Source of the DNA: Candidatus Eiseniibacteriota bacterium
GTDB taxonomy: Bacteria; Orphanbacterota; Orphanbacteria; Orphanbacterales; Orphanbacteraceae
Direction: 5' to 3'
DNA: 64,000 nt
Assembly (NCBI GenBank): GCA_043809585.1
Contig: JBDROZ010000087.1
Location: 1 to 64,000, forward strand
This document shows positions 29,985 to 55,357 of this stretch, in pieces. The translations under genes were made by a program, and so were the position numbers. Under the pieces are notes generated by a model. That model was given only the letters and a program-made list of their open reading frames with translations, was not told the origin of the DNA and made no database searches. How positions within the stretch are numbered: the first letter of the stretch is position 1; the number at the start of each line of letters is the position of its first letter.

Positions 29985-31343
29985 ATGATGAAGATCCGGC
30001 TCTTCCCGCCCGCCCTGATCCTCCTCCTCTCCGCGACCTGCGGGGAGGGACCGACAGGTTCCGCGCGGAACGGGATTCTCGTTCTCATCGATACCTGCCG
30101 GTTCGACGACGTGGGGCGCGAGGGGACCCACGGACCGGTCACCCCGAACCTCGACCGGTTCGCGGCGGGCGGCGCCTCCCGGTTCACCCGCTGCTCGGCG
30201 CCCGCCCCCTGGACGCTCCCCTCCGTCGGCTCTCTCCTGACCGGCGTCTATCCGACCGTCCACGGCGCCCTCGGCCGCTACCCCGATTTCACCAAAGTCC
30301 GCGCCGACGTTCCGACGGGCGCCGAACTTCTCTCCGCCGCCGGATTCGAGACCGCCGCCTTCGTGAACGTGGCCTTCCTCGATCCGGTGCTGGGCCTCGG
30401 CCGCGGTTTCGACGTCTACGATTACGTGGGGGGGGCGAACCGGAAGATCCGCCGTGCGGGGCCCACCTTCGACGAAGCGGCGGAGTGGCTCGAGAACCGG
30501 GGAGAGGGGCGCTTCTTCCTCTTCATTCACCTCTTCGATCCTCACATGGACTTCGACCCCGTGGAACCGTTCCGATCCCGCTTCCTCGAGGGGTACTTGG
30601 GGGAGATGGAGCCCCCTTTCGCCGGCGTCTCCCGTTGGAAAGCGGAGAAGGAGATCCCCCCCGAGATCCGGGACTTCGCCCGCGCCCTCTACCGGGCGGA
30701 GATCGCGGGGGTCGATCATGAATTCGGGCGGTTTCTCGGCCGGCTCGACTCGCTCGATCTCTCGGAGGAGACGGTGGTGATGGTGACCGCCGACCATGGC
30801 GAGGAGTTCTGGGATCACGGGAAGTTCGAGCACGGCCACACTCTGTACGAGGAACTCCTGCACGTCCCCTTCCTCCTCCGCGCCCCCGGCCGCCCCTTCG
30901 AACCGGAGATCGGCCGCCTCGTGGGACTGGTCGACGTGATGCCGACCCTTTTCGATCTTCTCGGTCTCCCCGTCGATCCCGGATTCCAGGGGGAGTCGCT
31001 CCTCCCCTTGCTCGAAGGGGAGGACCCGCCGGGGCCGCGCTACCGTTTCGCCGAGGCCCTTTTCTACGGCGATGATTGGAAGGGGGTGATCGGGGAGCGG
31101 TACAAGTACTCCATGAGTGAAGGCCATCCGGCGGGCGTGCTGTTCGATCTGGAGCAAGACCCTGGGGAGCGCCGGGACCTGGCCGGGGACAGGCCCGAGA
31201 GTGCGGCCGAGATGAGCCGGATCCTCGTCGACTGGTATCGAGGCGCTCTCGAGCGGACCGGCGGAAGCGTCCAAGGGGGCGAGACGGTGGACATGGAACA
31301 CGAGGTGGTCGAGCAGCTCCGCGCCCTCGGCTACGCCGACTGA
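29985..31343 (+). CDS. Sulfatase-like hydrolase/transferase (alkaline phosphatase superfamily), exported
   Basis: LIDTCRFD, WTLPSVGSLLTG, HLFDPH, TADHGEEF..HG...HGH.LY.E..HVP, LFDL..DPGE; C-terminal EQLRALGY. Confidence 0.9.
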   Translation: MMKIRLFPPALILLLSATCGEGPTGSARNGILVLIDTCRFDDVGREGTHGPVTPNLDRFAAGGASRFTRCSAPAPWTLPSVGSLLTGVYPTVHGALGRYPDFTKVRADVPTGAELLSAAGFETAAFVNVAFLDPVLGLGRGFDVYDYVGGANRKIRRAGPTFDEAAEWLENRGEGRFFLFIHLFDPHMDFDPVEPFRSRFLEGYLGEMEPPFAGVSRWKAEKEIPPEIRDFARALYRAEIAGVDHEFGRFLGRLDSLDLSEETVVMVTADHGEEFWDHGKFEHGHTLYEELLHVPFLLRAPGRPFEPEIGRLVGLVDVMPTLFDLLGLPVDPGFQGESLLPLLEGEDPPGPRYRFAEALFYGDDWKGVIGERYKYSMSEGHPAGVLFDLEQDPGERRDLAGDRPESAAEMSRILVDWYRGALERTGGSVQGGETVDMEHEVVEQLRALGYAD

Positions 31344-41007: not shown

Positions 41008-41017
41008 GGGGACGTCC

Positions 41018-42256
41018 ATGACGACGGGCGGGGGGGGAGGACCGGCGATTCCGGAGGTGGGCGTGATCGCCCTGGTGCCCGATCACTGGGGACCCTACTG
41101 GCAGCCCCGGCACTACGTGCTCTCCCTCCTGGCCCGGTTCTTCCGTGTCGTCTGGATGGAGCCGGCCGTCGACGGCCGTTCTTATCTCCTCCGCCGGGCC
41201 TCCGGAGGGGAGTCCCATCCGGTCCCGGCCGGCCTGTCGATTTTCGGCGCCCGCCGCTGGCCTCCGAAGATCTACCGGCCCGCGGCCCTCGCCGCGTGGG
41301 CGGAACGGGCCCGCCTCCGCGCCGCCCGGAGGCGCCTCGAGAGTCTCGGCTGCCGGCGGTTCATCCTCTATGTCTGGCGCCCCCGCTTCGCCTCCGCCCT
41401 CGGCCTCGTCGACCACGACCTCGCCTGCTATCACATCGACGACGAGTACGTCTTCTACGGAAGGGAGAACGCCGAAGAGGCGGCTCACGGCGAGCGGGAA
41501 CTGATGAAGCGGGTGGACCAGGTCTTCATCCACTCCCCCGCCTTGCTCGAGAAGAAGGGGGACGTGAACCCGCGCACGGAGCGGGCGCCGAACGGGGTCG
41601 ACTTCGACGCCTACCGGAAGCCCCGAGAAGAGCCGGAGGACCTGGCGCCGATCCCCCGTCCCCGTATCGGTTACGTGGGATGGCTGAAGCGCCAGCTCGA
41701 CTGGCCGCTGATCGAGAGGCTCGTGGATGCGCGCAAGGAGTGGTCTTTTGTCTTCGTCGGGCCCGCCGCTCCCCACGACGAGGTTCGGGAGAGCGTGGAA
41801 CGGCTCGCCGCCCGGCCCAACGTTCGCTTCCTCGGGGGAAAGCCGGTGGACCAACTTCCCGCCTACTCCCGGCACTTCGACGTCGGCGTCATGCCGTACC
41901 GGTCGGACGAATACACCCGCTACATCTATCCGCTGAAGCTCCACGAATTCCTCGCCACCGGAAACCCCGTCGTGGCGACCCGCATCCGATCCCTTGAGGA
42001 ATTCTCCCGCGTGGTCCTCCTCGCCGAAACGCCGGAGGAGTGGATCGCGGCGATCGAAGCCTCCCTCGAAGGGGCCGGGCCGGGGGCGGAGGAACGCCGC
42101 GCCGCGCGTCTTGAGGTCGCCCGGGAACACGACTGGGGGGTCATCGCCGGGCGGATCGCCGTCACCCTCGCCCGCCGCCTTTCGCCCGAAATCGCCGTCC
42201 GGGCCGAAGAGACCGCGGCGGCGCTCCTCCGGGAGAGGGGGGTGTCGGTTGAGTGA
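41018..42256 (+). CDS. GT4-like glycosyltransferase (TuaH-like)
   Basis: WQPRH, YHIDDE, PNGVD, IGYVG, PLKLHEFLATG.PVV. Confidence 0.88.
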   Translation: MTTGGGGGPAIPEVGVIALVPDHWGPYWQPRHYVLSLLARFFRVVWMEPAVDGRSYLLRRASGGESHPVPAGLSIFGARRWPPKIYRPAALAAWAERARLRAARRRLESLGCRRFILYVWRPRFASALGLVDHDLACYHIDDEYVFYGRENAEEAAHGERELMKRVDQVFIHSPALLEKKGDVNPRTERAPNGVDFDAYRKPREEPEDLAPIPRPRIGYVGWLKRQLDWPLIERLVDARKEWSFVFVGPAAPHDEVRESVERLAARPNVRFLGGKPVDQLPAYSRHFDVGVMPYRSDEYTRYIYPLKLHEFLATGNPVVATRIRSLEEFSRVVLLAETPEEWIAAIEASLEGAGPGAEERRAARLEVAREHDWGVIAGRIAVTLARRLSPEIAVRAEETAAALLRERGVSVE

Positions 42257-43724
42257 AATCGCGCCCCCGCCGGACGGCTCCCGGGATAGCCTCGACCGCT
42301 CCCTGATCCGCGGAATCGCGTGGACCGGCTCGGCGAAGTGGGGGAGCCAGATCGTCACCTGGGCCTCCACGATTCTCGTGGCCCGGATGCTCCTTCCCGA
42401 GCATTACGGCATCGTCGGGATGGCGACCATCTATCTCGGCCTCGTGACTCTGGTCAACGAGTTCGGCTTCGGGATGGCCATCGTCGCCCTCCGGGACCTG
42501 TCGGACCGGCAGGTGGCGCAGCTGAACACGGTGGCGATCCTCTTCGGCCTGATCAGCTTGGGTCTCTCTTTCGCCGCCGCGCCGCTTCTCGCCCTCTTCT
42601 TCCAGACCCCGGAGCTCCGGACGGTGGTGATCGCCATGAGCCTCGGTTTCGTGCTCGGGTCGTTCCGGACCGTGCCCCAGGCGCTCCTCCAGAGAGAGCT
42701 GCGGTTCCCCCGGCTCGCCGTGATCGAGGGGATCCAGGCGGTGCTCCGGGCGCTCACCATGATCGCCCTCGCCGCCGCCGGGTTCGGCTATTGGACGCTC
42801 GTCGTCGGGAACGTCCTCGGCGCCCTTTACTGGACCGGGCTCACCCTTCACTCGCGCCGGCATTCCTACGCCGCGCCGAGATGGGGAGAGATCCGGCCGG
42901 CCCTGCGTTACAGCTGGCACATTCTCGGCGGGCGCATCGGCTGGTACGTCTATTCCCACGCCGACTTCGCCGTGGCGGGACGGATGCTCGGGCAGGCGGC
43001 GCTCGGCGCGTACTCCTTCGCCTGGACCTTGGCGAGCCTTCCGGTGGAGAAGGTGACCGCCATGGTCGGCCGAGTGACGCCGGCGGTCTTCTCCGCCGTC
43101 CAGGAGGATGACGAGTCCCTCCGCCGCTATCTGTCGAACCTGACCGAGGGGCTCGCCTTGATCACCTTCCCCGCGGCGGTCGGCCTCGCCCTCGTGGCGG
43201 ACACGCTGGTCCCCGTCGCTCTCGGCGACCGCTGGCTCGCCGCCGTGGCCCCCCTCCGCCTCCTCGCGGTGTACGCCTCGTTCCGTTCCATCGTGACCCT
43301 TCTCCCCCAAATCCTGAACGTCACCGGCCACTCCCGCTTCGGGATGGGAAACGCCTTCCTCGCCGCCGTGGTGCTCCCCATCGCTTTCATCATCGGCGCC
43401 CGCTACGGGACGACGGGAATCGCCGCGGCTTGGATCGTCGCCCACCCTCTCGTGACGCTGCCGGTCTACTGGCGCGTCTTCACGCGGATCGGCATGCCCA
43501 CGTCCCGGTACCTTCGCGCCCTCTGGCCCGCCATCAGCGCCGTGGCACTCATGGCCACCGTCGTGCTCGCCGTGAAACGGATCGAACCGGCCGGTTGGCC
43601 CGCGGCCGCCCGTCTCGCCGTCGAAGCGGGGAGCGGCGCCGCCGCCTACGCCCTCGCCATCGGCATCATCCACCGTTCCCGGTTCAAGGCGATACGGTCC
43701 AGCCTCCGGCTTCTTCGCCGATGA
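42249..43724 (+). CDS. Wzx-type polysaccharide flippase (MOP superfamily)
   Basis: G..W......Q......LVARML.PE.YG, EFGFG, LQRELRF, D..V.GR.LG...LG.Y..A; about 12-14 TMs. Confidence 0.88.
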   Translation: MSEIAPPPDGSRDSLDRSLIRGIAWTGSAKWGSQIVTWASTILVARMLLPEHYGIVGMATIYLGLVTLVNEFGFGMAIVALRDLSDRQVAQLNTVAILFGLISLGLSFAAAPLLALFFQTPELRTVVIAMSLGFVLGSFRTVPQALLQRELRFPRLAVIEGIQAVLRALTMIALAAAGFGYWTLVVGNVLGALYWTGLTLHSRRHSYAAPRWGEIRPALRYSWHILGGRIGWYVYSHADFAVAGRMLGQAALGAYSFAWTLASLPVEKVTAMVGRVTPAVFSAVQEDDESLRRYLSNLTEGLALITFPAAVGLALVADTLVPVALGDRWLAAVAPLRLLAVYASFRSIVTLLPQILNVTGHSRFGMGNAFLAAVVLPIAFIIGARYGTTGIAAAWIVAHPLVTLPVYWRVFTRIGMPTSRYLRALWPAISAVALMATVVLAVKRIEPAGWPAAARLAVEAGSGAAAYALAIGIIHRSRFKAIRSSLRLLRR

Positions 43725-43832
43725 CCGGTCCGGTGCTCTTTGAGAATTGAAGTCTTTTCTTCATTCCGCCGATTCTCCGCGGTGCAGACCCCGATCGGAG
43801 TGTGGTTCCTGAACCGGCGCAATTTCCCACGG

Positions 43833-43862
43833 TTGACAGGGTTTCCGAGATCGGGTTACAAT
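43833..43862 (+). promoter_or_regulatory. Sigma70-type promoter of the sat/cysC operon
   Basis: TTGACA-18 bp-TACAAT, 55 bp upstream of the RHH gene; downstream TACGAT direct repeats at 43881 and 43893 are a possible operator. Confidence 0.7.
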
Positions 43863-43917
43863 CTTAGACTCTTTATGTAGTACGATCAGTTATACGATTG
43901 GAGCCTGGAGCGCAGAG

Positions 43918-44139
43918 ATGAAAGAGAGCCGAGTCACCATCAAGATCCCCCGGCCCCTCTATCGGAAGATCACACAAGTTATTGATGGGTCTGGCTTTAG
44001 CTCTCCTACGGATTTCATCGTCTATGTCCTCCGCGATCTTGTCGGGGAGCGGAGTGTCCCCGAAGGGCAGGAGGACTTCTCCCAGGACGAGCTCAGGAGC
44101 ATTCGACGGAAGCTGAAGAACCTGGGGTACCTCGAGTAG
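43918..44139 (+). CDS. CopG/ribbon-helix-helix protein with C-terminal LxxLGY tail
   Basis: VTIKIPRPLY..I...I..SGFSS.TDFI.YVLR RHH pattern; ends IRRKLKNLGYLE. Confidence 0.85.
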   Translation: MKESRVTIKIPRPLYRKITQVIDGSGFSSPTDFIVYVLRDLVGERSVPEGQEDFSQDELRSIRRKLKNLGYLE

Positions 44140-44192
44140 CCCCATGCCGGGCGCCGGGGGAGCCCCTCCCGGGAAACCGAAGGGAACACGAC

Positions 44193-45362
44193 ATGATACG
44201 TGCACACGGAGGCAAGCTGGTCCACCGCATCGCCGAAGGCAGAGAGCGGGAGACCCTGATGGAGAAGGTCCCGAACCTGCCGAGGCTGACGCTGAACGAG
44301 CGGGAGACCGCGGACATCGAGATGATCGCCATCGGCGCCATGAGTCCCCTCGAAGGATTCATGACCCGGGAGGACTACATCTCGGTCCTCGACCTGAAGC
44401 GCCTCGGCAAGGGATTGCCCTGGACGATTCCGGTGGTCTTGGCGGTGAAGGAGGGGGACGGCGCCGAATACAAGGAAGGCGGGCAGGTCGCCCTCGTCTC
44501 TCCGGAAGGGGAAGCCCTCGGCGTCATCGACCTGGAGGAGAAGTACCGGGTCGACAAGCGGCAGGAGGCGGAGAAGGTCCTTCTCACCACCGACGAGTCC
44601 CATCCGGGCGTGCAGTACCTGGTCACGACCGGCGACGTCTACCTCGGCGGCGCGATCCACCTTCTCCAACGGCCGAAGCACCACCGGTTCGAGAACTACC
44701 GCCTCGATCCGAAGGAGACGCGGGTCCTCTTCAAGGCGAAGGGATGGGAGACGGTGGTCGCCTTTCAGACCCGGAACCCGATCCACCGGGCCCACGAGTA
44801 TTTGCAGAAATGCGCCCTCGAGATCGTAGACGGACTGCTGGTGCATCCCCTGGTCGGCCAGACCCGGGGCGAGGACATCCCCGCCGAGGTGCGGATGAAG
44901 TGCTACGAGGTCCTCTTCGAGCACTACTACCCGCGCACCCGGACCGCCCTCTCCATCTTCCCGGCGGCCATGCGGTACGCCGGACCCCGGGAGGCGATCT
45001 TCCACGCCCTGGTGCGGAAGAACTACGGCTGCTCCCATTTCATCGTCGGCCGGGACCACGCGGGCGTCGGCAGCTTCTACGGCACCTACGACGCCCACTA
45101 CATCTTCGGCGAGTTCGACCGGTACGAGATCGACATCACGCCCATGTTCTTCGATCACGCCTTCTTCTGCCGGAAGTGCGGGAACATGGCTTCGTCCAAG
45201 ACCTGCTCCCACGAGAGCGCCGACCACGTGTTCCTCAGCGGGACGAAGGTCCGGGAGATGCTCGGGCGGGGCGAGATCCCGCCCGTCGAGTTCACGCGGC
45301 CCGAGGTCGCCGAGATCCTCGTGAAACACTACCAACAGCGCGAGAAGGAGCAGAACGGATGA
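44193..45362 (+). CDS. sat: Sulfate adenylyltransferase (ATP sulfurylase)
   Basis: HGGKL, SPLEGFM, AFQTRNPIHRAHEY, MRYAGPREA, HFIVGRDHAGVG, LSGTKVR. Confidence 0.97.
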   Translation: MIRAHGGKLVHRIAEGRERETLMEKVPNLPRLTLNERETADIEMIAIGAMSPLEGFMTREDYISVLDLKRLGKGLPWTIPVVLAVKEGDGAEYKEGGQVALVSPEGEALGVIDLEEKYRVDKRQEAEKVLLTTDESHPGVQYLVTTGDVYLGGAIHLLQRPKHHRFENYRLDPKETRVLFKAKGWETVVAFQTRNPIHRAHEYLQKCALEIVDGLLVHPLVGQTRGEDIPAEVRMKCYEVLFEHYYPRTRTALSIFPAAMRYAGPREAIFHALVRKNYGCSHFIVGRDHAGVGSFYGTYDAHYIFGEFDRYEIDITPMFFDHAFFCRKCGNMASSKTCSHESADHVFLSGTKVREMLGRGEIPPVEFTRPEVAEILVKHYQQREKEQNG

Positions 45363-46738
45363 GTCGTCTGGCCCTGATCGGACTGGATTGCGCGGCGCCC
45401 AAGCTGATCTTCGACCTGTGGCGCGACGAACTCCCGAACATCAAGTCCGTGATGAGCGAGGGGGTCTACGGGAATCTCCGTTCCACCCTTCCGCCCATCA
45501 CCGTCCCCGCCTGGACGTCGATGATGACCTCGCAGGACCCGGGGCAGCTCGGCTTCTACGGCTTCCGGAACCGGGCGAGCCACGACTACGAGGATCTCTT
45601 CTTCGCGAACGCCAAGTACGTGAAGGCGAAGACGGTGTGGAACTACCTCTCCCGCCAGCGCCTGAACTCGCTCGTCTTCGGCGTCCCCCAGACCTACCCG
45701 CCGAAGCCGCTGAAGGGCGTCATGGTCTCGAGCTTCCTCACGCCGAGCAAGGAAGTGCAGTGGACCCACCCGCGCGAGGCGGCCCGCGAGGTCGACGAAG
45801 CGGCGGGGGGCGACTACATGATCGACGTGAAGGACTTCCGCACCGATGACAAGGATTGGCTCGTGGAGCAGATCTACGAGATGACCAGGCGCCGGTTCGC
45901 CGCGTTCCGTCACTTCGTGAGGAAGAAGGACTTCGACTTCATGATGATGGTGGAGATGGGGATCGACCGGATCCATCACGGCTTCTGGCGCTACTTCGAC
46001 AAGGAGCACCGCCTCTACGAGCCGGGACACCGGTACGAGACAGTCATTCACGACTACTACAAGTTCGTCGACGAGGAACTCGGCAAGCTGCTCAGCGACC
46101 TCCCCATGGACACGTCGGTGATGATAACGTCCGACCACGGCGCCCGGGGGATGGACGGCGCGATCTGCGTCAACGAGTGGCTGATGCGGGAAGGGCTGCT
46201 GAAGCTGAAGAAGAAGCCCGACGGCCCGACGAAGCTGACCATGGACATGGTCGACTGGAAGAAGACGAAGGCGTGGGGCGAAGGGGGCTACTACGCCCGG
46301 ATCTTCATGAACGTGGAGGGCCGGGAGCCGAAAGGGGCCGTCCCCGCGGCGGAATACGAGAGCTTCCGGGACGAACTCAAGGCGATGATCGAGGCGATCC
46401 CCGACGAGAAGGGGGAGCCGATCGGCACCACCGTCTACAAGCCCCAGGATGTGTACAAGGAGGTGAACGGGGTCGCTCCCGACCTCATCACCTTCTTCGG
46501 AGACCTTTCGTGGCGGAGCGCCGGTCTGGTCGGCACGGGCGTGATCCACACTTTCGAGAACGACACGGGCCCGGACGACGCCAATCACGACTGGAACGGG
46601 ATCTTCATCTGGGATCACCCGGCGAAAGTGGAGCCGAAGGTGAAGGACCCCTATTCGATCTACGACATCGCTCCCACGATTCTCCGTTTCTTCGACATCG
46701 ACATACCGGAGCACATGATCGGGGAGCCCCTCTTTTAG
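45359..46738 (+). CDS. Alkaline-phosphatase-superfamily (NPP/type I phosphodiesterase-like) protein 1
   Basis: [43 protein letters not shown] overlap with sat. Confidence 0.9.
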
Positions 46739-46805
46739 GGGAAAGAGGCCCCCTGCCGATGACGGAAGAGAGGAAGCGGAAGGACCCACAAGGAGGAAGG
46801 CTCTC

Positions 46806-47417
46806 ATGAGCGCCAACAAGGGATTCACACTTTGGTTCACGGGGCTCTCGGGCTCCGGAAAGACGACCCTCGCCCGGGCGGTCGAGGAGATCCTCCTCGA
46901 GCGGGGTCTGAACGTGGAGGTCCTCGACGGGGACGTGGTTCGCACGAACCTGTCGAAGGGTCTGGGGTTCTCGAAGGAGGACCGGGACACGAACATCAAG
47001 CGGATCGGCTTCGTCGCCCACCTGCTCTCGCGGAACGGCGTCGTCGCCATCGCCTCGGCGATCAGCCCCTACCGGGAGATCCGGGACTACTGCCGGGAGA
47101 TGATCGGCCGGTTCGTCGAGGTCTACGTGGAGTGCCCCCTCGACACCCTCGAGGAGCGGGACGTGAAGGGGCTCTACAAGAAGGCCCGGGCCGGTGAGAT
47201 CAAGGGATTCACGGGTGTGGACGACCCCTACGAGGCGCCGCTGAAGCCGGAGGTGCTCATCCACTCCGCCGCGGAGAGCGAAGAGGAGAGCGTCCAGAAG
47301 ATCATCCGGACGCTCGAGCTGATGGGCTACATTCCGGGCGCCGACGCCTCCGAGGAGTACACCGAGGAGGAAGAGGAAAAAATCAAGCAGCGGCTCCGCG
47401 ATCTCGGCTATATCTAA
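46806..47417 (+). CDS. cysC: Adenylyl-sulfate (APS) kinase with C-terminal LxxLGY extension
   Basis: [48 protein letters not shown]; tail [16 protein letters not shown]. Confidence 0.96.
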
Positions 47418-47435
47418 ATTCATGGAAGGCGTGAT

Positions 47436-48785
47436 TTGGCGCTGAATTTCCGGAAGAAGAAGAAGGCGGGCCGGAGGGCGTGCGTCTTCGGCATCGACGG
47501 GATGCCTTGCACGCTGCTTTCGGATCTCATGGAACGGGGCGTCATGCCCCGGGCGAAGGAGATTTTCGAGGCCGGGACCCTTCACAAGATGAAGGTGACC
47601 CTTCCCGAGGTCTCCGCGGTCAGCTGGCCGAGCTTCATGACCGGGTCCGACCCGGGGACCCACGGGGTCTACGGCTTCACGGAGTTCGATCCGGGCACCT
47701 ACCGCATCCGTTTCCCGAGCTTTCCCTCGCTCAAGGCTCCCACGCTGTGGGACCGTCTGGGCGAAAAGGGGAGGCGTTCGGTGGTGATCAACCAGCCGTC
47801 GACTTATCCGGCCCGGGAGATTCCGGGGGTGCTGATCTCCGGGTTCGTGGCGGTCGACATGAGAAAGGCGGTGTCGCCGCCGTTTCTGCTGAAGAAGCTC
47901 GAGCAGCTCGATTACGAGATCGACGTGGATTCCCAGAAGGGGGGGAGGGATGCGGACTTCCTCTTCCGGGAGCTCGGCTCGACTCTCCGGGGGCGGGAGA
48001 GGGTGCTCGACTACCTCTGGGAGCGGGAGGATTGGGACCTCTTCGAGATCGTCGTCACCGGCACGGACCGGCTGCAGCACTTCCAGTACGACGCGATCGA
48101 GGACCCGTCCCATCCGAACCATGTCCGCTGTCTCGAGTACTACGAGAAGGTGGACGGGTTCCTCGGGCGGGTGTTCGACCGGTACACGGCGGAGACGGAC
48201 GAAGGCCGAGGCCGCGGAAGGCCGGGCGCGGGTTTCTTCGCCCTGTCGGACCACGGCTTCTGCCGGATCCGCCGGGAGTTCTACCTGAACGCCTGGCTCG
48301 TGAAGGAGGGGTTCCTCTCGTTCCGGTCGAAGGAGCCGAAGTCGTTCGAGGAGGCCCTGCCGTCGTCGAAGGCCATGGGCCTCGACCCGACGAGGATCTA
48401 CCTGAACCGGAAGGACCGCTTCCCGGAGGGGACGGTGCGCGGCGAAGAGATCCCCGAGATCTGCGCCGCCATCAAGGAGAAGGCCCTGGCGGTCGAATTC
48501 GAGGGGGAGAAGGTCTTTCAGGGGGCCTTCCGGCCGGACGAGATCTACACGGGGGCCTGCGTCGCGGAGGCGCCGGACCTGGTGCTCCTCGCGAACGACG
48601 GCTTCGACGTGAAGGGGTGGATGCGGACCGAAGGGGTGTTCGGCAACTCCCACTTCACGGGGATGCACAATTGGGACGACGCCTTCCTCTGGACCCCGGA
48701 GGAGATGCCCGCCGGCTTCGACATCACGAACATCGCCGGCGCGGTGGAGAGGACCCTGCTCGAAGGAGACGGATCGAGTGAGTGA
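47436..48785 (+). CDS. Alkaline-phosphatase-superfamily (NPP-like) protein 2
   Basis: FGIDG, PEVSAVSWPSFMTG, TDRLQHF, SDHGF, GMH. Confidence 0.88.
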   Translation: MALNFRKKKKAGRRACVFGIDGMPCTLLSDLMERGVMPRAKEIFEAGTLHKMKVTLPEVSAVSWPSFMTGSDPGTHGVYGFTEFDPGTYRIRFPSFPSLKAPTLWDRLGEKGRRSVVINQPSTYPAREIPGVLISGFVAVDMRKAVSPPFLLKKLEQLDYEIDVDSQKGGRDADFLFRELGSTLRGRERVLDYLWEREDWDLFEIVVTGTDRLQHFQYDAIEDPSHPNHVRCLEYYEKVDGFLGRVFDRYTAETDEGRGRGRPGAGFFALSDHGFCRIRREFYLNAWLVKEGFLSFRSKEPKSFEEALPSSKAMGLDPTRIYLNRKDRFPEGTVRGEEIPEICAAIKEKALAVEFEGEKVFQGAFRPDEIYTGACVAEAPDLVLLANDGFDVKGWMRTEGVFGNSHFTGMHNWDDAFLWTPEEMPAGFDITNIAGAVERTLLEGDGSSE

Positions 48786-50937
48786 CCGAAGGAAGATGTC
48801 CCGCCTGTGGATCGCCCTGGCGCTGCTCGCCCTGGCCGCGGCGCCGGCCTTCGCCTACATCGGCCCCGGCGCGGGATTCGCCTTCCTCTCTTCCTTCATG
48901 GTCCTCTTCGTGACCTTCCTCCTCGCCGTGGTTTCGATCCTGATCTGGCCGATCCGGGTGGTGATCCGCCTCCTCACCCGCGCGGGGAAGCTGGCGAAGA
49001 CCGACGTGGACCGGGTCATCGTCGTCGGCTACGACGGCCTCGAGCCGAAGCTGGCCCGGAAGTGGATGGACGAGGGGAAGCTGCCGAGCTTCAAGCGCCT
49101 CGCCGACAAGGGGGACTTCCAGCCCCTCTTCTCGTCGTGGCCCTCCATGTCGCCCGTGGCGTGGTCGACCTTCGCCACGAGCACGGACGCGTCGAAGCAC
49201 AACCAGTTCGACTTCCTGAACCGGGACCCGAAGACGTACGTCCCCGATCTGGCGTCGGTGAAGATCACGAACCCGACCCGGTCGATCAAGATCGGCAAGT
49301 ACCGGATCCCTCTCGGCAAGCCGGTGGTGAAGCTGATGCAGCGGTCCACCCCGTTCTGGAAGATCCTCGGAGACCACCACATCTTCTCCCAGATCCTCCG
49401 GGTGCCGATCACGTTCCCGCCGGTCAAGTTCAACGGGGCGCTCCTCTCGGCGATGTGCGTGCCCGATCTCGCGGGGACCCAGGGGACCTTCACCTTCTTC
49501 ACCACCGACGAGGCCGCGGTGAAGGGAGCGACCGGCGGCGTGCGGAAGCCGCTCGTCCGCCGGGGGAACGCGGTGAAGGCGTACATCCCCGGGCCCGCGA
49601 ACAGCATGACCGAGAAGCAGGAGGAACTCCGGATCCCCCTCGAGGTGACGATCGACGACACGAAAGAATTGGCGACGTTCAAGCTCCCCGGCGAGACCTT
49701 CAAGCTCGGCCTGAAGGAGTACTCCCCCTGGAAGAAGGTCGCCTTCAAGCCGGGCCTCGGAATCAAAGTGAACGGCATCGTCCGTTTCTACATCATGTCC
49801 TTCCAGCCCCACTTCGAGCTCTACCTCTCGCCGACCCAGATCGACCCGGAGAAGCCGGCCATGCCGATCTCGGAGCCGGTCTTCTACTCGGTCTACCTGG
49901 CGAAGCTCTTTGGGCCCTATTCGACCCTCGGGCTCGCCGAGGACACGTGGGCCCTGAACGAACGGGTGATCGACGAAGACGCGTTCTTGAAGCAGGTCTG
50001 GATCAATCATGACGAGCGGGAGAAGCAGTTCTTCAACGCCCTGAAACAGACGAAGCGGGGTCTCGTGGCGTGCGTTTTCGACTGCACCGACCGGATTCAG
50101 CACATGTTCTGGCGCTACTTCGATCCGAATCATCCGGCGAACGTGGGGAAAGACGGGGAGATCTACAAGGACGAGATCGAGAAACTCTACGTCCGGATGG
50201 ACGAATTGCTCGGCCGGATCATGAAGGAGTGCGACGACACGCGCACGGTCCTCATGCTCATGTCCGACCACGGTTTCACCGAGTTTTCGCGCGGAATGAA
50301 CCTGAATTCGTGGCTCGTCGAGAACGGCTATATGACGATGCAGAACGGCGACAAGACGTGCCAGGACTGGTTCCGGGGGGTGGACTGGACGAAGACGAAG
50401 GCGTACAGCTTCGGCCTCACCGGCATCTACCTGAACAAGGCCGGGCGCGAGGGGCAGGGGATCGTGGCCGAGGAGGACGCCGTCGCGTTGAAGCGGGAGA
50501 TCGCGGGGAAGCTGAAGGGCTGCCGGGACGAGGAGCGGGGCCGGGTCGCGGTGAGGGACTGTTTGATCGCCGAAGACCTCTTCCACGGACCCTACGTCGA
50601 GAACGGGCCCGACATCTACCCTTGCTTCGACCACGGCTACCGGACGTCGTGGGAGGCGGCGGTCGGGAAAGCGGACGGGAAGGTCTTCCACGACAACGGG
50701 AAGAGCTGGAGCGGCGACCACTGCGTCGACCCGCGGATCGTGCCCGGCGTCTTCTTCTGCAACCGGCGGCTTGCGCGGAAGAAGATCGGCATCGTCGACA
50801 TCGGAGCGTCGGTGCTCGACCTGTTCGGCATCCCGATTCCCCGCCACATGACCGGGCGCTCTTTCTTCCGGGCCGATCCCTCGGAGGAAGCGGCGTCCCC
50901 GGAGGGGGCCGCGGCGAAGGAAACGTCTCGAGGATAG
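48778..50937 (+). CDS. Membrane-anchored alkaline-phosphatase-superfamily (NPP-like) protein 3
   Basis: N-terminal signal/TM (AFAYIGPGAGFAFL...), VGYDG, PSMSPVAWSTF, DRIQHMFW, SDHGF, WSGDH. Confidence 0.88.
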   Translation: MSDRRKMSRLWIALALLALAAAPAFAYIGPGAGFAFLSSFMVLFVTFLLAVVSILIWPIRVVIRLLTRAGKLAKTDVDRVIVVGYDGLEPKLARKWMDEGKLPSFKRLADKGDFQPLFSSWPSMSPVAWSTFATSTDASKHNQFDFLNRDPKTYVPDLASVKITNPTRSIKIGKYRIPLGKPVVKLMQRSTPFWKILGDHHIFSQILRVPITFPPVKFNGALLSAMCVPDLAGTQGTFTFFTTDEAAVKGATGGVRKPLVRRGNAVKAYIPGPANSMTEKQEELRIPLEVTIDDTKELATFKLPGETFKLGLKEYSPWKKVAFKPGLGIKVNGIVRFYIMSFQPHFELYLSPTQIDPEKPAMPISEPVFYSVYLAKLFGPYSTLGLAEDTWALNERVIDEDAFLKQVWINHDEREKQFFNALKQTKRGLVACVFDCTDRIQHMFWRYFDPNHPANVGKDGEIYKDEIEKLYVRMDELLGRIMKECDDTRTVLMLMSDHGFTEFSRGMNLNSWLVENGYMTMQNGDKTCQDWFRGVDWTKTKAYSFGLTGIYLNKAGREGQGIVAEEDAVALKREIAGKLKGCRDEERGRVAVRDCLIAEDLFHGPYVENGPDIYPCFDHGYRTSWEAAVGKADGKVFHDNGKSWSGDHCVDPRIVPGVFFCNRRLARKKIGIVDIGASVLDLFGIPIPRHMTGRSFFRADPSEEAASPEGAAAKETSRG

Positions 50938-50983
50938 CCTTTGGACGAGAGCCCGCGGTAGCGCGGGCCCGGAGGGAGAGAAG

Positions 50984-51175
50984 ATGTTCGGACCGAAGCT
51001 GAAGCTGAGCAAGGACCTGCTCGACAAGATCAAGAAGTACTCGGAGATCGCCGGGTACGCCTCGCCCGAGGAGTTCGCCATTCACGCCCTCGAGAAGGAG
51101 ATCGCGAAGCTCGAGGAGGCGGGGTCGGACGAGGAGATCAAGAAGAAGCTGCAGGGACTCGGCTACATCTCTTAG
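50984..51175 (+). CDS. Small RHH-like protein with C-terminal LxxLGY tail
   Basis: KLKLSKDLLDKIKKY...GYASPEEF..HALE resembles the 43918 RHH; ends EEIKKKLQGLGYIS; GGAGGGAG RBS upstream. Confidence 0.8.
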   Translation: MFGPKLKLSKDLLDKIKKYSEIAGYASPEEFAIHALEKEIAKLEEAGSDEEIKKKLQGLGYIS

Positions 51176-51196
51176 CCGGGGTCGTGCGGTGGGTTT

Positions 51197-51395
51197 CTGC
51201 TGCGGCCGCGGCTCGCGGGCTGCAAGGCGTCGTCTCCATCGCCGCTTCCGGAGCGGGGCCCGTCGGGCGCTTGGACTTATCGCGACGGCTAGGAGCGATA
51301 AGCGGTAGCGCCCGGGGGGAGCAACCTTAGCGAGGACTGCGGTAGCGGGATTCAGGCGGCCTTTCGCCTCGCGATCCACGACCTCGCGACGAACC
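51197..51395. repeat. Palindromic intergenic repeat, related to the 52251-52540 element
   Basis: Shares ctgcggccg..gctcgcgggctgcaag and the end motif cctcgYgacgaa with the element at 52288-52418; internal hairpin ttatcgc/gcgataa. Confidence 0.55.
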
Positions 51396-51445
51396 CCCCC
51401 GCCCTCCCCAGGCTCCCCAGGAACGGCTCGGAAGGAGCAAAGGGC

Positions 51446-52264
51446 ATGTGGACAGTTGTTCACGGTGTAACGGCGGTTTTTGACGGTCTGATCGGCTTGT
51501 TCGACCGGTGGCACCCGATGGTCGGGCTCCTCGTGATCTCGATCATCACGGGCGCCATCATGCTGATCATCTTCCGTTACACGTCGAACCAGGCCGCCAT
51601 CGCCGACACGAAGAACAAGATCAAGGCGTACATTCTGGAGGTCCGCCTCTTCAAGGACGACCTGCCCGCCCAGATGGCCGCCCAGCGTCGGATCCTTTGG
51701 ACGAACTTCAAGTACATACGCTACGCCACGGCGCCCATGCTGGTCATGCTGATCCCGGTGCTCGTGATCCTGATCCAGCTCGACGTCCGTTACGCCCGCC
51801 GGCCCCTCCTGCCCGGCGAGGACACCATCCTCAAGGTGGAGATGGAGAAGGGGACGGACATCTCTTCGCTCCGGTTCGAGCCTCCCGCGGGAATCGTCAG
51901 CGACATGGAGCCGGTCCGGATTCCGGAGCGAAATCAGGTGACCTGGCGGCTCGAGGCCGAAGCGTCCGGCGCCCACGACCTGATCTTCACGAGCGGCGGC
52001 GAGGCCGTCACCAAGAGGCTCGAGGTGGGCGACTACCTCACCAAGCTCGCCGACGAGCGGAAGCACTCGAACGCCTTCGGCGTCTGGGAGAACCCCGCCG
52101 AGCCGCCCCTCCCGAAGGGCTCCGCCTTCCGGTCGATCGTGATCGAGTACCCCGACCGGGACCTCCGGATCTGGGGGTTCGGCATGCACTGGCTCCTCGT
52201 CTTCTTCGCCTCGTCCGTCATCTTCGGTTTCGCGATCAAAGGTTTCGTCGGGGTCGAAGTCTGA
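51446..52264 (+). CDS. Membrane protein, DUF106/EMC3/TMCO1 (Oxa1 superfamily)-like
   Basis: TM1, coiled coil (SNQAAIADTKNKIKA...MAAQRRI), P-containing TM2, soluble insert, terminal TM (HWLLVFF). Confidence 0.55.
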   Translation: MWTVVHGVTAVFDGLIGLFDRWHPMVGLLVISIITGAIMLIIFRYTSNQAAIADTKNKIKAYILEVRLFKDDLPAQMAAQRRILWTNFKYIRYATAPMLVMLIPVLVILIQLDVRYARRPLLPGEDTILKVEMEKGTDISSLRFEPPAGIVSDMEPVRIPERNQVTWRLEAEASGAHDLIFTSGGEAVTKRLEVGDYLTKLADERKHSNAFGVWENPAEPPLPKGSAFRSIVIEYPDRDLRIWGFGMHWLLVFFASSVIFGFAIKGFVGVEV

Positions 52265-52540
52265 CCCGGATTTCGGAGACGTTCCTACTGCGGCCGGCGC
52301 TCGCGGGCTGCAAGCCTTGTTCTCCTTCGTCGCCTCCTCGACGTAGCTAAGGCTACGCCTGCGTCGGCGGCTCGTCCGAGCAAGTCTTTCGCCACGCTCC
52401 GCTCGGCCTCGTGACGAAACCTCTCCGAAACCCGGGTCAGATTCGACCCGAGGAAGGGAACGCCGAACCGCGGGTCACACCGAAGAGGATCGGCCTCGCG
52501 ACGATATCTCTCCGAAAACCGGATCAGACTTCGACCCACG
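52251..52540. repeat. Compound inverted-repeat element overlapping the stop codon of the upstream gene
   Basis: gggtcgaagtctgacccggatttcggagacgtt (52251-52283) has inverted copies at about 52418-52449 and 52506-52537; central hairpin gtagc-taag-gctac. Confidence 0.7.
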
Positions 52541-52581
52541 GAACGGAACACCGAAGCGCTCAGAATGCTCTTCATCTCCCT

Positions 52582-52754
52582 GGCGGGGCGGGGGATCGGT
52601 TGAGGGAGGGATGAGTGGGGCAGATTGGGACGCTCGATCTACTACGGGAGAAAACCCTCCCATTCTCCGGACTCGTAAAGGGGGCGTCGCGAAGAACTCC
52701 GACAGCTCCCCGGTTATGCCCCCCATCCCTCCCGAAGCCGACACCTGTCCCGCC
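52582..52754 (+). repeat. About 170-bp MITE/REP-like element, copy 1
   Basis: Near-identical to 52817-52988 (period 234 bp); TIR ggcggggcgggggatcgg.tgagggaggg. Confidence 0.85.
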
Positions 52755-52816
52755 GATCCCGGTTTCGCCGGTTCCCTCTCAGAAGAGAACGCTGTAAGAC
52801 ACCTGCCTTGCTTTCT

Positions 52817-52988
52817 GCGGGGCGGGAGATCGGGTGAGGGAGGGATGAGTGGGGCAGATTGGGACGCTCGATCTACTACGGGAGAAAACCCTCCCATTCT
52901 CCGGACTCGTAAAGGGGGCGTCGCGAAGAACTTCAACAGCTCCCCGGTTATGCCCCCATCCCTCCCTCACCCGACCGCTCGCCCCGCC
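52817..52988 (+). repeat. About 170-bp MITE/REP-like element, copy 2
   Basis: gcggggcgggagatcgggtgagggaggg ... ccctccctcacccgaccgctcgccccgc terminal inverted repeats. Confidence 0.85.
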
Positions 52989-52996
52989 CCTCCTCG

Positions 52997-55357
52997 TCAC
53001 CTCACGATGACGATCTTCTTCGTGATCTCCCTCTCCACCGTCTTCACCCGCACGAAGTAGACCCCCGCCGCGGCGCGGCGGCCCGAGCGGTCCCGGCCGT
53101 CCCATGCGAGGGCGGCGATGCCGTTCGACGAGGTGAAGTCCGCGTCTTCCATCGACCGAATCTCCCGGCCCGCGACGTCGTAGACACGAAGCGAGACCGG
53201 ACCCGACGCGGGCGGGGCGAAGCGGATGGTGACGGCGCCCGCCGAGGGGTTCGGGTAGGGGGGGAGGGAGGCGACCGAATCGGCCGGCGCGATCGGCGTG
53301 AAAACGCCCGCGAGTTTCGCCGTCAACGCCGCCGAGAGACGGGCCGACTTCTCGAAGAAGGGGAAGTCGAAATTGCCGAGCGTGTCGTTCGACGTGTGCA
53401 GATCGTGGGTCGCGACCTCGAAGTCCTCGTTCACGAGAACCGCCGGGTAGCCGCTCGCCCAGAAAGGCGAGTGGTCGCTGTAGATCATCTCGGGGGCGAC
53501 GAGAAGGGAGCAGGCGAGGTCGGGCGTCGAGAGTTCCCGCACTCCGGGAATCTCGTCCAGGAGCCAGGAGGAAGGCTCGTCGGCGTAGACGATGAGGGGA
53601 CCGTCGGAGCGGCCGATCATGTCGATCTGGACGTCCGCCGCGATCGCCTCGCCCATCGACCCCCGTCCCGTCGCATAGGCGATCGATCCTTGAAGCCCCA
53701 GTTCTTCCCCCGAAAAGAGAAGGAAGCGAATCGTCTTCTCCGCGGGAGCGCCGGAGAGGAGCCGGGCCGTCTCCAGAACCGCCGCGACACCGCTGGCGTC
53801 GTCGTCCGCGCCGGGCGCGTCCGTATACGGGTCGTACATCGGCGGCTGGGCGTACGAGTCATAATGGGCCGACAGGATCACCACGCTGTCCGGATTGACC
53901 CGTCCCGGAATCTCGGCCCCCACGTTCCTCGACCGGTGGGCGACCTCCTCGGGAAGGGGGATTGACGACCAGGAGGCCCCGCCGTCGTCCGACGAAACGA
54001 AGAGCCCGTCCACGCCCCCCGCGACGACGCCGCCCCCCGAACGAATCGCGAGGAAGTCGATGTTCCGGGCGAGGAAGGGGAAAGAGGGGAAGAGAACTTC
54101 CTCCCACGAAAGAAGGGATTCGCCTCCCGTCTCCGCCCGGAAGACCCGGGTGAGTAGAATCGGGTCGTCCAGGCCGGCGATCCAGAGAGCGGAGTCGGGG
54201 GCGAAGGCGACCGTGTATCCCCGGGGGATCGGCGTCGACGCCTGGTTCCAGGCGTTCCCGTCCCAGAGGAGCGCCTTGTTGCCGCTCGAGAGGAGCGCCG
54301 CCCCGAGGGAGGGGCCCGCGAAGGCGATGTCGTAGATGGTCCCGGGCCCGCTGTTCCGGAGGACCCACCCTCCGGTGGGCGTCCAGTGCCAGATCTGCTG
54401 GCTCGCCCCGGCCGCCCACGCGTTCTCTTCGTCCACGTATACCGCATCGTTCAGGGGGCTCGATCCGACGGCCTGCTCGATCCACGTCCCGCCGCCGTCA
54501 TCGGTTCGGTAGACCGCGCCCGATTGAGACGCCGCGATGCCCCGGAGGGAATCGAGGAAATCGATCGCGCTTAGCCGCTTCACGCCGAGGGTGTCCGCCG
54601 CCTCCCACACTCCCCCTTCCTCCCGGAAGACCCGGCCCGAATCGCCGGCGGCGAAGCGGACCCAATTCCCCGCGGCCGCGACGTCGTAGAGCCGGACCGG
54701 GGCGAGGAACTCGGTCTCCCACGTCTGTCCGCCATCCTCCGTGACGAGCACGGCGCCCGTTTCGTCGTGGGAGAGGGCGATCCATCCTCGCGAGACGCCG
54801 GGGGAGAATTCGATTCCCCGGAGGTCCCACTCGGAGAGGGTGTACTCGTGATAGAACGGCTCGTACCCCATCGCCTCGAACCGCCCGAAGAGATAGACGG
54901 CGGCGCTCTCCTGCTCGGCGGTGTACTCGTAGCGGGTGCCGAAGGCGACGAGGTCCTCCACGGTGCGAACGAGGGAGTCGAGATTCGTTCCGGAGGCGAG
55001 CGACGCGGCGAGGGAGTCGGATGCGTCCGACGAGGAACGCTTCGCGACGTGCGGGACCGCCCGCACCGACTCGAGCCTCGCCCGGAGAACCTCACGGTCC
55101 GGGGGAACCGGAGGGACACGATGCTCATTTCGGTCGGGAAAGGAGGCCTCAACCGCCGCCCCTCCAGCAAGATGAGTATCGTGTCCCTCGATTTCGAATT
55201 GAGTATTGTGTCCCCCGAATTCCGCTTGAGTATTGTGTCCCCCGAATTCCGCGCCGAGGATCAGCGGGAGGAGCAGCGGGAGAAGAAGGCCCGGCCTATT
55301 CGACCGGGATTGGGAGGCCGTCCCCGAAGGCGATGGCGCGGTACGCTTTCTCCACAC
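52997..55357 (-). CDS. Secreted M28 Zn-aminopeptidase with inserted BNR/YCF48-like propeller and FlgD-Ig-type C-terminal domain
   Basis: SAHYDS, GADDDASG, FSGEELGL, DMIG, SDH; repeated [TS].DGG.[TS]W boxes; C-terminal PYPNP..RVYDVAGR..WDGRD..G...GVYF; start codon uncertain (GTG 55357). Confidence 0.85.
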   Translation of the reverse strand: MWRKRTAPSPSGTASQSRSNRPGLLLPLLLPLILGAEFGGHNTQAEFGGHNTQFEIEGHDTHLAGGAAVEASFPDRNEHRVPPVPPDREVLRARLESVRAVPHVAKRSSSDASDSLAASLASGTNLDSLVRTVEDLVAFGTRYEYTAEQESAAVYLFGRFEAMGYEPFYHEYTLSEWDLRGIEFSPGVSRGWIALSHDETGAVLVTEDGGQTWETEFLAPVRLYDVAAAGNWVRFAAGDSGRVFREEGGVWEAADTLGVKRLSAIDFLDSLRGIAASQSGAVYRTDDGGGTWIEQAVGSSPLNDAVYVDEENAWAAGASQQIWHWTPTGGWVLRNSGPGTIYDIAFAGPSLGAALLSSGNKALLWDGNAWNQASTPIPRGYTVAFAPDSALWIAGLDDPILLTRVFRAETGGESLLSWEEVLFPSFPFLARNIDFLAIRSGGGVVAGGVDGLFVSSDDGGASWSSIPLPEEVAHRSRNVGAEIPGRVNPDSVVILSAHYDSYAQPPMYDPYTDAPGADDDASGVAAVLETARLLSGAPAEKTIRFLLFSGEELGLQGSIAYATGRGSMGEAIAADVQIDMIGRSDGPLIVYADEPSSWLLDEIPGVRELSTPDLACSLLVAPEMIYSDHSPFWASGYPAVLVNEDFEVATHDLHTSNDTLGNFDFPFFEKSARLSAALTAKLAGVFTPIAPADSVASLPPYPNPSAGAVTIRFAPPASGPVSLRVYDVAGREIRSMEDADFTSSNGIAALAWDGRDRSGRRAAAGVYFVRVKTVEREITKKIVIVR
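55173..55249. repeat. Three 27-bp tandem REP-like units, in frame within the M28 gene
   Basis: tgagtattgtgtcccccgaattc at 55200 and 55227, degenerate copy at 55173; encodes EFGGHNTQA-EFGGHNTQF-EIEGHDTH. Confidence 0.85.

Follow-up and report, generated by a model that had tools for sequence, protein, structure and literature searches.

Why should proteins of different kinds, encoded side by side in one operon, end in the same short helix? The question is raised by a 64,000-nucleotide stretch (hereafter the window) of a Candidatus Eiseniibacteriota genome (assembly GCA_043809585.1, contig JBDROZ010000087.1, positions 1 to 64,000). Three proteins of one of its operons, namely the putative DNA-binding protein RHH73, the adenosine 5'-phosphosulfate (APS) kinase CysC and the 63-residue protein s63, close with a helix ending in L-x-x-L-G-Y, here called the LGY tail. 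The same tail ends a sulfatase-family lipoprotein elsewhere in the window and is missing from the operon's three alkaline phosphatase (AP) superfamily enzymes, AP1, AP2 and AP3. In this operon, the LGY helix probably serves as a docking tag of a kind not described before. Docking as such, whatever the receptor, seems likely; that the helix docks on the AP-fold domain, between protomers in tailed enzymes and in trans here, is suggested by analogy and has a little less than an even chance of being right. The features on which the argument draws are the following.

43833-43862 (+): sigma-70-like promoter site TTGACA-18-TACAAT just 5' of the first operon gene; 11/12 hexamer matches, a consensus match only
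43918-44139 (+): RHH73, operon gene 1, ribbon-helix-helix (RHH)-like protein of 73 amino acids (aa); tail FSQDELRSIRRKLKNLGYLE encoded by 44077-44136
44193-45362 (+): sat, ATP sulfurylase, untagged; PF01747 E 1e-97, PF14306 E 2e-51
45359-46738 (+): AP1, soluble PF01663 enzyme without tail; PF01663 E 2e-41; start corrected
46806-47417 (+): CysC, APS kinase; PF01583 E 1.3e-65, NF002059 279 bits
47436-48785 (+): AP2, soluble PF01663 enzyme without tail; PF01663 E 9e-34
48778-50937 (+): AP3 (AP3a type), PF01663 enzyme without tail; N-terminal hydrophobic hairpin around AYIGPGAG
50984-51175 (+): s63, RHH-like protein of 63 aa; tail GSDEEIKKKLQGLGYIS encoded by 51122-51172
51446-52264 (+): d272, membrane protein of 272 aa, constant partner 3' of s63
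29985-31343 (+): sulfatase-family lipoprotein with the tail in cis; PF00884 E 2e-31; tail DMEHEVVEQLRALGYAD encoded by 31290-31340

The operon is tightly packed, with overlaps of 4 nt (sat end and AP1 start) and 8 nt, gaps of 18-67 nt and a single 270-nt gap before the last gene; two promoter-like sites were found in the region, against 0.7 expected. All four tails quoted in a first-pass annotation of this DNA are present at the ends of RHH73 (...SQDELRSIRRKLKNLGYLE), s63 (...SDEEIKKKLQGLGYIS), CysC and the window sulfatase (...HEVVEQLRALGYAD). Its statement that AP1, AP2 and AP3 lack the tail agrees with their ends, ...MIGEPLF, ...LLEGDGSSE and ...AAKETSRG, respectively. With PF01663 scores of 143, 118 and 97 bits against a gathering cut-off of 23, these three enzymes are assigned by sequence to the type I phosphodiesterase/NPP family of the AP superfamily.

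The tail as a discrete element

Across the genome (4.24 Mb, six frames, stop-to-stop frames of at least 40 aa), the pattern [LIVMF]xx[LM]GY occurs 173 times. In 29 cases it lies one to four residues before the stop (18 at exactly two), compared with only eight at all of positions 5-19 together, and a single residue follows the tyrosine in only three of the 29. A C-terminal LGY element exceeds chance. A back-translated tail-plus-stop pattern likewise found 15 sites in this genome against five for a reversed control. A profile hidden Markov model (HMM) of the tail separates 29 of 34,547 frame ends (scores of at least 13.9) from all others (10.4 or lower); 26 of these 29 were training rows, and the pattern scan is the independent count. 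Both scans bear out the earlier description of the tail as a discrete element.

The 29 pattern hits comprise 23 AP-superfamily genes, the three operon proteins, one RadC homologue and two short unassigned open reading frames (ORFs; C42 and C87:8842), which we take as chance. The last three were left out of the HMM training set, and the RadC homologue matches with its own ordinary end (...LREMGYL). Outside the AP superfamily, RHH73, CysC, s63 and this RadC homologue are therefore the only real genes of the genome that carry the motif. The best tail-like end outside the recognised set (10.4 bits) belongs to a 474-aa frame on contig C70, ending at 62883 on the minus strand (...IERLRGLGFVAQEEPSPPGPGTD).

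As an element, the LGY tail can be described as an amphipathic helix, about 13-20 residues long and portable between proteins, that is joined to its carrier by a flexible and in many cases acidic linker. By eye, the cytoplasmic tails open with a [YF]-[ST]-x-[DE]-E box, which we take, from helix-capping rules, to be an N-cap or hydrophobic staple, and they close with L-x-x-L-G-Y-hydrophobic, read as a C-cap. The glycine and tyrosine are invariant in every paralog alignment alongside the catalytic Asp and His columns, and so appear as conserved as catalytic residues across paralogs. Among solved structures, the tail profile best matches a helix of the TamA POTRA domain (E 7e-4), which we read as a generic helix-strand junction and not as homology; no sulfatase was matched among the solved chains. 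No description of an LGY C-terminal motif or of the tail strings was found in the literature, supplementary files being outside the reach of that search.

Several known terminal signals were compared with the tail and rejected. The proteasome-docking motif HbYX needs a penultimate tyrosine, a position taken in only three of the 29 hits, with two residues following the tyrosine in 18. PEP-CTERM, LPXTG and similar sorting signals place a transmembrane helix and a basic end behind their motif and occur on exported proteins only; no hydrophobic segment follows the LGY motif, and three carriers, including an ATP-dependent kinase, have no signal peptide. The Hsp70/Hsp90 EEVD and PTS1 peptides are recognised by tetratricopeptide repeat (TPR) domains and need a free carboxylate at a fixed distance. 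Like them, the LGY tail combines an acidic stretch with a short C-terminal motif, and TPR domains adjoin the motif in some carriers. However, the LGY motif is followed by 1 to about 20 residues (1-4 in the 29 frames, 9-20 in three genes) or lies internally, before a TPR domain of the same chain, in four genes. Degron and tyrosine-modification readings were also considered and set aside.

According to the first-pass annotation, many AP and sulfatase-like proteins carry this tail in cis. The motif is indeed present in 30 of the 39 AP-superfamily genes of this genome, and of 33 carriers sampled from five Planctomycetota genomes at least 30 belong to the AP superfamily (see below). Among the 28 PF00884 genes, it is terminal in 19, lies 9-20 residues before the end in three, is internal in four (about 30 residues before a C-terminal TPR domain) and is absent in two. 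The 11 genes with PF01663 only are divided into four tailed and seven tail-less; the latter are AP1, AP2, AP3, an AP3b-like gene on contig C36 and three others, one of which ends in the variant ...LEALPYLQ. The motif is therefore found in 30 of 35 AP-fold genes outside the module described below and in none of the four module-type genes (AP1, AP2, AP3 and the AP3b-like gene; Fisher p = 0.0015, uncorrected for relatedness among the genes).

The tailed PF00884 paralogs share the consensus P-x-T-x-P-S-x-A-S-x-L-T-G, with threonine at the nucleophile position in at least 90% of rows. In class I formylglycine sulfatases, this nucleophile is supplied by a C/S-x-P-x-R signature. Because threonine replaces the Cys or Ser that becomes formylglycine, the tailed paralogs are probably not true sulfatases. 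The LGY tail is best described as the native end of a very large AP-superfamily clade that comprises these Thr-nucleophile 'sulfatases' and some PF01663 enzymes. For annotation, this means that a very large 'sulfatase' clade has threonine for the formylglycine residue together with a conserved terminal helix. Judged by eye, the N-termini of these cis carriers hold either a signal peptide followed by cysteine, as in lipoproteins, or three to six hydrophobic segments, and a simple lipobox pattern matched five of them. We read them as extracytoplasmic.

In the AlphaFold2 model of the window sulfatase (mean pLDDT, the model's confidence score, 84.6), residues 431-436 fall below 50 and the tail helix at 439-447 reaches about 74, suggesting a tethered helix behind a low-confidence linker. 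Three alignments with solved sulfatases, two of them choline/aryl-sulfatase chains, stop at residues 348-405 of 452. The furthest tabulated matches to solved sulfatases stop at residue 436-437, and none reaches the tail helix or L-G-Y.

Carriers in trans and the membrane module

The earlier description of the tail bearers as unrelated holds in part. Homology between RHH73 and s63 extends along their entire length (hhalign probability 95.9%, E 5e-9, 58 columns), which makes them paralogs, so the independent non-AP carrier families in the window number two and not three; CysC is the second. At E<=1e-3, a search with RHH73 gave 3246 relatives, with identities of 65-100% among the 120 listed, some of which bear the source name 'CopG family'. 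For s63, there are 780 at the same threshold, with identities of 70-97% among the 120 listed. L-x-G-L-G-Y-[IL]-S is essentially fixed in the s63 family, G-L-G-Y and the final serine being invariant in 33 rows. Neither RHH73 nor s63 matched a Pfam or NCBIfam family at E<=0.01. One relative weakly matches the RHH-type families PF07704 and PF19891 (E ~0.02, below the cut-off), and the labels 'CopG family' and 'Arc/MetJ-type' come from source annotations. Searching solved structures with the s63 profile gave nothing meaningful, the best match being a ribosomal uL13 chain (E 0.004). RHH73, s63 and CysC have no signal peptide and are predicted to be cytoplasmic.

CysC itself is assigned as an APS kinase by a full-length match above curated cut-offs (244 bits for NF002059). 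This match covers residues 4-176 of 203, leaving residues 177-203 outside the model. The first-pass annotation had counted an inner LELMGYI (residues 170-176) as a second copy of the tag. This does not stand, since the curated model stops at residue 176 and LELMGYI is the canonical APS-kinase end; fused sat-cysC genes, for instance, end in ...LHLEKLGYIGA or ...LHLESLGFIGA. The real addition is a 27-aa extension whose last 19 aa (47358-47414) form the tail, and it could have begun by duplication of the kinase's last helix. An AlphaFold2 model of CysC (mean pLDDT 85.9) places a helix at residues 187-200 of the extension, at about 91, after a weaker linker.

Among 15 aligned stand-alone CysC proteins linked to the module, 11 are extended: five carry the LGY extension and six the same extension ending in N-F, S-F, Q-F or S-Y, while four lack any extension. 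With phenylalanine accepted in place of tyrosine, a hydrophobic contact is favoured over modification of the tyrosine hydroxyl. An apparent rule that tailed CysC always has soluble AP1/AP2 neighbours (5/5 versus 0/10) was dropped, as six more CysC proteins without such neighbours have the variant extensions. A further protein encoded near RHH73 in two other loci (L134 11307-12110 and L136 3438-4397) ends in ...AMQKLRALGYM. The L134 copy matches the PAPS-reductase domain PF01507 (PAPS, 3'-phosphoadenosine 5'-phosphosulfate) and is CysD-like by eye; it would be a sulfate-activation enzyme with a tail-like natural end.

Which genes accompany the tailed proteins elsewhere? A survey of one genome per species found 548 stretches encoding a relative of s63, and the counts that follow come from the best 80 loci. 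By record titles, these loci belong to at least ten phyla, including Acidobacteriota, Planctomycetota, Gemmatimonadota, Eisenbacteria, Myxococcota and Fibrobacterota. An AP3-type gene is present in 79 of the 80, d272 in 79 and both in 78, the two gaps lying at contig ends. The resulting four-gene core consists of a PF01663 enzyme predicted to face the cytoplasm (AP3a), a second one predicted to be exported (AP3b), s63 and d272; two AP3-type ORFs of more than 600 aa precede s63 in 53 loci. In AP3a, basic residues flank a hydrophobic hairpin around A-Y-I-G-P-G-A-G on either side, and from these positive charges the catalytic domain is predicted to lie in the cytoplasm. The N-terminus of AP3b is signal-peptide-like (lipoprotein-like or twin-arginine-like by eye), so that AP3b should be exported. 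For d272, only a weak EMC3/TMCO1 Pfam match below the cut-off was obtained (E 0.096).

The tail is present on none of the 158 AP3-type ORFs of these loci and always present on the adjacent s63. Over the same 32 loci, identity to the window proteins is 65-83% for s63 and 46-77% for AP3a. The division into three tagged partners and three untagged enzymes, as first described, holds in this operon, but in the majority of related loci s63 is the single tagged protein, beside two PF01663 enzymes without a tag. RHH73 was found in 16 of 201 sampled Planctomycetota genomes. Among 15 RHH73 neighbourhoods fetched, the order RHH73-sat-cysC-AP3a-AP3b-s63-d272 recurs in Planctomycetota, and in a Myxococcota genome RHH73 lies directly 5' of AP3a. 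The Planctomycetota operons are also accompanied by a divergent gene whose product, a tail-ended lipoprotein about 165 aa long, is TPR-like by weak matches only.

Proposed docking partners and alternative readings

A tail distribution uncorrelated with AP or sulfur genes would, according to the first-pass annotation, have refuted its proposal. A correlation was found: in several phyla, carriers outside the AP superfamily lie close to tail-less PF01663 enzymes and sulfate-activation genes, and genomes with the module are enriched in tails. In 24 Planctomycetota genomes with s63, the tail pattern has 122 hits against 50 for the control, compared with 462 against 649 in 177 genomes without s63 (Mann-Whitney p = 2e-5 over the 201 genomes, with s63's own hit removed and phylogeny ignored). 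Non-s63 carrier ORFs from five Planctomycetota genomes numbered 35, or 33 once a duplicate and a fragment of 42 aa had been removed for the Pfam census; among these 33, 30 match PF01663, 27 match PF00884 and one matches a GDSL lipase family. A 385-aa Planctomycetota ORF ending in ...LRELGYVP (L149 1870-3024), taken as this PF13472 GDSL-lipase match, may be a rare non-AP carrier or chance.

Relatives of the operon's own tail-less enzymes also carry the tail. In one Planctomycetota genome, where s63 and RHH73 were not found with the window proteins as queries, seven tandem soluble PF01663 genes are tailed in cis, in a cluster that includes Wzy-like, glycosyltransferase and radical-SAM genes. Their products can be aligned with AP1 (26-31% identity, lowest E 8e-63) and AP2 from one end to the other; AP1, for example, is 31% identical over 493 aa to a cis-tailed relative. 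The cis tail of these AP1/AP2-like enzymes sits on an extra 40-50 residues, and the window's own genome has such a gene as well (L005), encoding a soluble AP1/AP2-like PF01663 enzyme with a cis tail. BLAST pairs the AP1-like cis tails with the tails of CysC (63% over 19 aa) and s63 (67% over 18 aa). An AP-fold enzyme thus either carries the helix itself or adjoins the gene of a small tailed protein, which amounts to a fusion-type argument for a functional link. This link is, on sequence grounds, plausibly also physical. In complex predictions for AP3 residues 66-719 with s63 (33-row alignments), three runs gave 0.72, 0.73 and 0.73 and the controls 0.00, 0.54 and 0.00, the margin to the best control being below the mark, so that these predictions speak neither for nor against contact.

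The closest known system to the LGY tail is found in the oligomerisation tails of AP-type sulfatases, followed by the partner-binding tails of RHH proteins and by terminal targeting peptides. As described in PMC5870055, the C-terminal tails of AP-type sulfatases and phosphonate monoester hydrolases (PMH) dock on the opposing protomer. In the Sinorhizobium choline sulfatase SmCS, three tail residues line the substrate or active-site tunnel of the opposing protomer, and deleting 12 tail residues lowers activity (PMC5870055). The tails of SmCS, Rhizobium PMH and dimeric arylsulfatases resemble the LGY tail in belonging to the same superfamily, in occupying the same chain position and in being partly helical; according to that source, they are subgroup-specific, follow the AP-fold core and reach towards the opposing active site. 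However, no sequence relation to the LGY tail was found, the alignments with solved sulfatases stopping before it. The LGY tail also differs from the SmCS and PMH tails in its much smaller length, in the flexible linker before it and in its presence in two Pfam families (PF00884 and PF01663). In contrast to every case in PMC5870055, it also occurs on separate non-AP proteins.

RHH73 and s63, which are putative DNA-binding proteins, resemble RHH proteins with functional tails in having a small N-terminal strand-helix-helix module, a linker and a short C-terminal helix. Type II antitoxins of the RHH class bind their toxin through a C-terminal tail, and Mnt has a tetramerisation helix. As the first operon gene behind a promoter-like site, RHH73 is also placed like RHH (CopG/Arc/MetJ) regulators. 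In contrast to RHH antitoxins, however, the two proteins have no significant Pfam RHH match and no toxin-like neighbour, and they share their tail with enzymes; s63 is, moreover, far more conserved across phyla (65-83% identity) than usual regulators. Other short terminal targeting peptides include those that direct encapsulation in bacterial microcompartments and load cargo into encapsulins. The LGY tail shares with these an amphipathic helix that is short, flexibly linked and placed at the end of unrelated enzymes with connected functions. It differs in that most carriers are exported and in its sequence pattern, and no shell or encapsulin gene was found in the operon stretch scanned against Pfam.

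Docking onto the tail-less AP enzymes is the best reading of these observations, because AP1/AP2-like relatives are tailed in cis and AP-type sulfatase tails dock on a neighbouring protomer. In tailed enzymes, the LGY helix would dock on the AP fold of the neighbouring protomer, as the tails of choline sulfatase and phosphonate monoester hydrolase do. In this operon, it would dock in trans on the tail-less PF01663 enzymes. CysC and the dimeric RHH proteins would then be tethered to AP3a, as well as to AP1/AP2, on the cytoplasmic side of the AP3a-AP3b-s63-d272 membrane module. Further effects, such as completion of the AP-fold active site by the tail, substrate channelling through CysC recruitment or sensing of enzyme state by the RHH proteins, are speculation. 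If true, the inter-protomer tail of choline sulfatase would here have a split counterpart, an AP-fold tail that a gene of its own supplies in trans.

Several points weigh against AP-fold docking. Physical or structural contact between tail and AP fold is only inferred, and the statistics of association are phylogenetically non-independent. An excess of at least four tail hits over control in eight s63-negative genomes means that genomes without s63 can have many tailed genes, and therefore that cis tails are independent of the module. L-x-x-L-G-Y is also a generic helix-to-strand junction, and both canonical APS-kinase ends and the CysD-type end with PF01507 match it. The high pLDDT of the CysC extension helix (about 91) may mean that it packs on CysC itself. 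Cis carriers appear extracytoplasmic and trans carriers cytoplasmic, so the tail must work in two compartments. Lastly, the motif before a TPR domain in four sulfatases and the tailed TPR-like lipoproteins make TPR scaffolds an alternative receptor.

It is somewhat unlikely, but worth considering, that the tail is a docking tag whose receptor is not the AP fold, be it a TPR scaffold in the periplasm, d272 or another module part in the cytoplasm, or a bundle of LGY helices. Besides the four sulfatases with the motif directly before TPR repeats and the tailed lipoproteins divergent from the Planctomycetota operons, such a receptor is favoured by d272, which follows s63 in 79 of 80 loci, and by the a/d-like spacing of the hydrophobic tail positions. 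Mnt-type RHH repressors tetramerise via a C-terminal helix, and as RHH proteins and APS kinases are dimers, their tails would be bivalent. However, the cytoplasmic part of the operon holds no TPR gene, and the reason why the module AP enzymes are exactly the tail-less ones is left unexplained. With cis carriers exported or membrane-anchored and trans carriers cytoplasmic, one receptor in one compartment cannot serve all, which counts against a single non-AP receptor. A search for fused forms of s63 with a partner found none, only two longer proteins of 130 and 167 aa, and this counts weakly in the same direction. It is improbable that nothing docks and that the tail is an intramolecular, self-capped helix stabilising its own domain, the operon clustering being an accident of a co-transferred gene set, the CysC tail a duplication of the kinase's last helix and the RHH pair a product of common descent. 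The resemblance between the canonical CysC end and its extension, the confident extension helix in the monomer model, the paralogy of RHH73 and s63 and the common helix-strand junction would all fit. Yet even among very divergent paralogs the glycine and tyrosine vary as little as catalytic residues do, s63 is more conserved than AP3a over the same loci, and the tail in the sulfatase model follows a low-confidence linker outside the core. Of the four genuine non-AP carriers in the 4.2-Mb genome, moreover, three belong to one operon, and the Planctomycetota CysC extensions keep the helix while G-Y changes to N-F, S-F or Q-F, indicating selection on a hydrophobic face and not on a cap.

Amphipathic helices also target proteins to membranes, as in MinD and FtsA, and the tail could hold envelope enzymes, CysC and RHH proteins at either face of the inner membrane, beside AP3a, AP3b and d272. 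This would work on both sides of the membrane, as two-compartment carriers demand, and would suit a tail with a basic-plus-hydrophobic face and a membrane-bound module. It is nevertheless highly improbable, since the hydrophobic face is small (Leu, Leu, Tyr and one aliphatic residue), the strongly acidic stretch before the tail is unfavourable at anionic membranes, lipoprotein and multi-transmembrane carriers are already anchored, and an internal position before TPR domains is ill-suited to a terminal anchor. Scarcely credible is a role for the invariant tyrosine as a site of sulfation, phosphorylation or nucleotidylation by the neighbouring AP and sulfate-activating enzymes, or for the tail as a degradation or export signal. 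The tyrosine is invariant in AP-fold and RHH carriers, lies in an acidic context and is encoded next to PAPS-forming genes, but Planctomycetota CysC extensions have phenylalanine in its place (LNFID, LSFVS, LQFLS), the two compartments of the carriers have different proteases and export routes, the motif may be internal, and no transmembrane segment or basic end of the sorting-signal kind is present.

Docking on the AP fold may also be part of a wider scheme, an unlikely one as it stands, in which the LGY helix would serve, in two compartments, as the assembly code of a machine not yet described that modifies the envelope. On the cytoplasmic side, RHH-LGY adaptors, being bivalent, and the tailed APS kinase would plug into membrane-anchored, tail-less PF01663 enzymes, physically coupling PAPS synthesis, catalysis and transcription of the operon. 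In the periplasm, the helix would join dozens of Thr-nucleophile 'sulfatase' paralogs, TPR lipoproteins and exported AP3b. Should the tail prove to be a docking helix, it would allow members of an uncharacterised system, one that spans at least ten phyla and links sulfate activation to membrane-bound AP-superfamily enzymes, to be recognised from sequence. A peptide of 20 residues, the 63-aa protein and soluble domains of the enzymes would suffice to test this hypothesis by binding. Should it be no more than a structural cap, it would still be a family signature useful for annotation.

Surroundings of the operon

Around the operon, an Rfam scan of 43000-54000 matched no family, and in a search for operators 5' of RHH73 one weak palindrome was seen but no convincing operator repeat. 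Two copies of a 57-nt sequence, 81% identical and in direct orientation, lie just after s63 (51193-51249) and just after d272 (52281-52337), bracketing the d272 gene. The spacer between s63 and d272 is 270 nt in the window, compared with about 20 nt in the closest related locus (L024). Further 3' of d272, a 141-nt direct repeat is present at 52583-52988 in two copies that are 97% identical, at a spacing of 234 nt and with flanking inverted repeats, and a related stretch lies near the window end (63867-63889, minus strand). It looks like a repeated intergenic element, to which no Rfam family matches.

Directly 5' of the operon, at 40907-43724, lie a glycosyltransferase-like ORF and a multi-pass, flippase-like membrane ORF (translations judged by eye), a hint that the system may modify an envelope glycan. 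Next to the tailed sulfatase is a 656-aa ORF (27735-29705, minus strand) whose product, also by eye, is hydrophobic in its N-terminal half and resembles TPR repeats towards its C-terminus, which makes it a candidate TPR partner in the periplasm.

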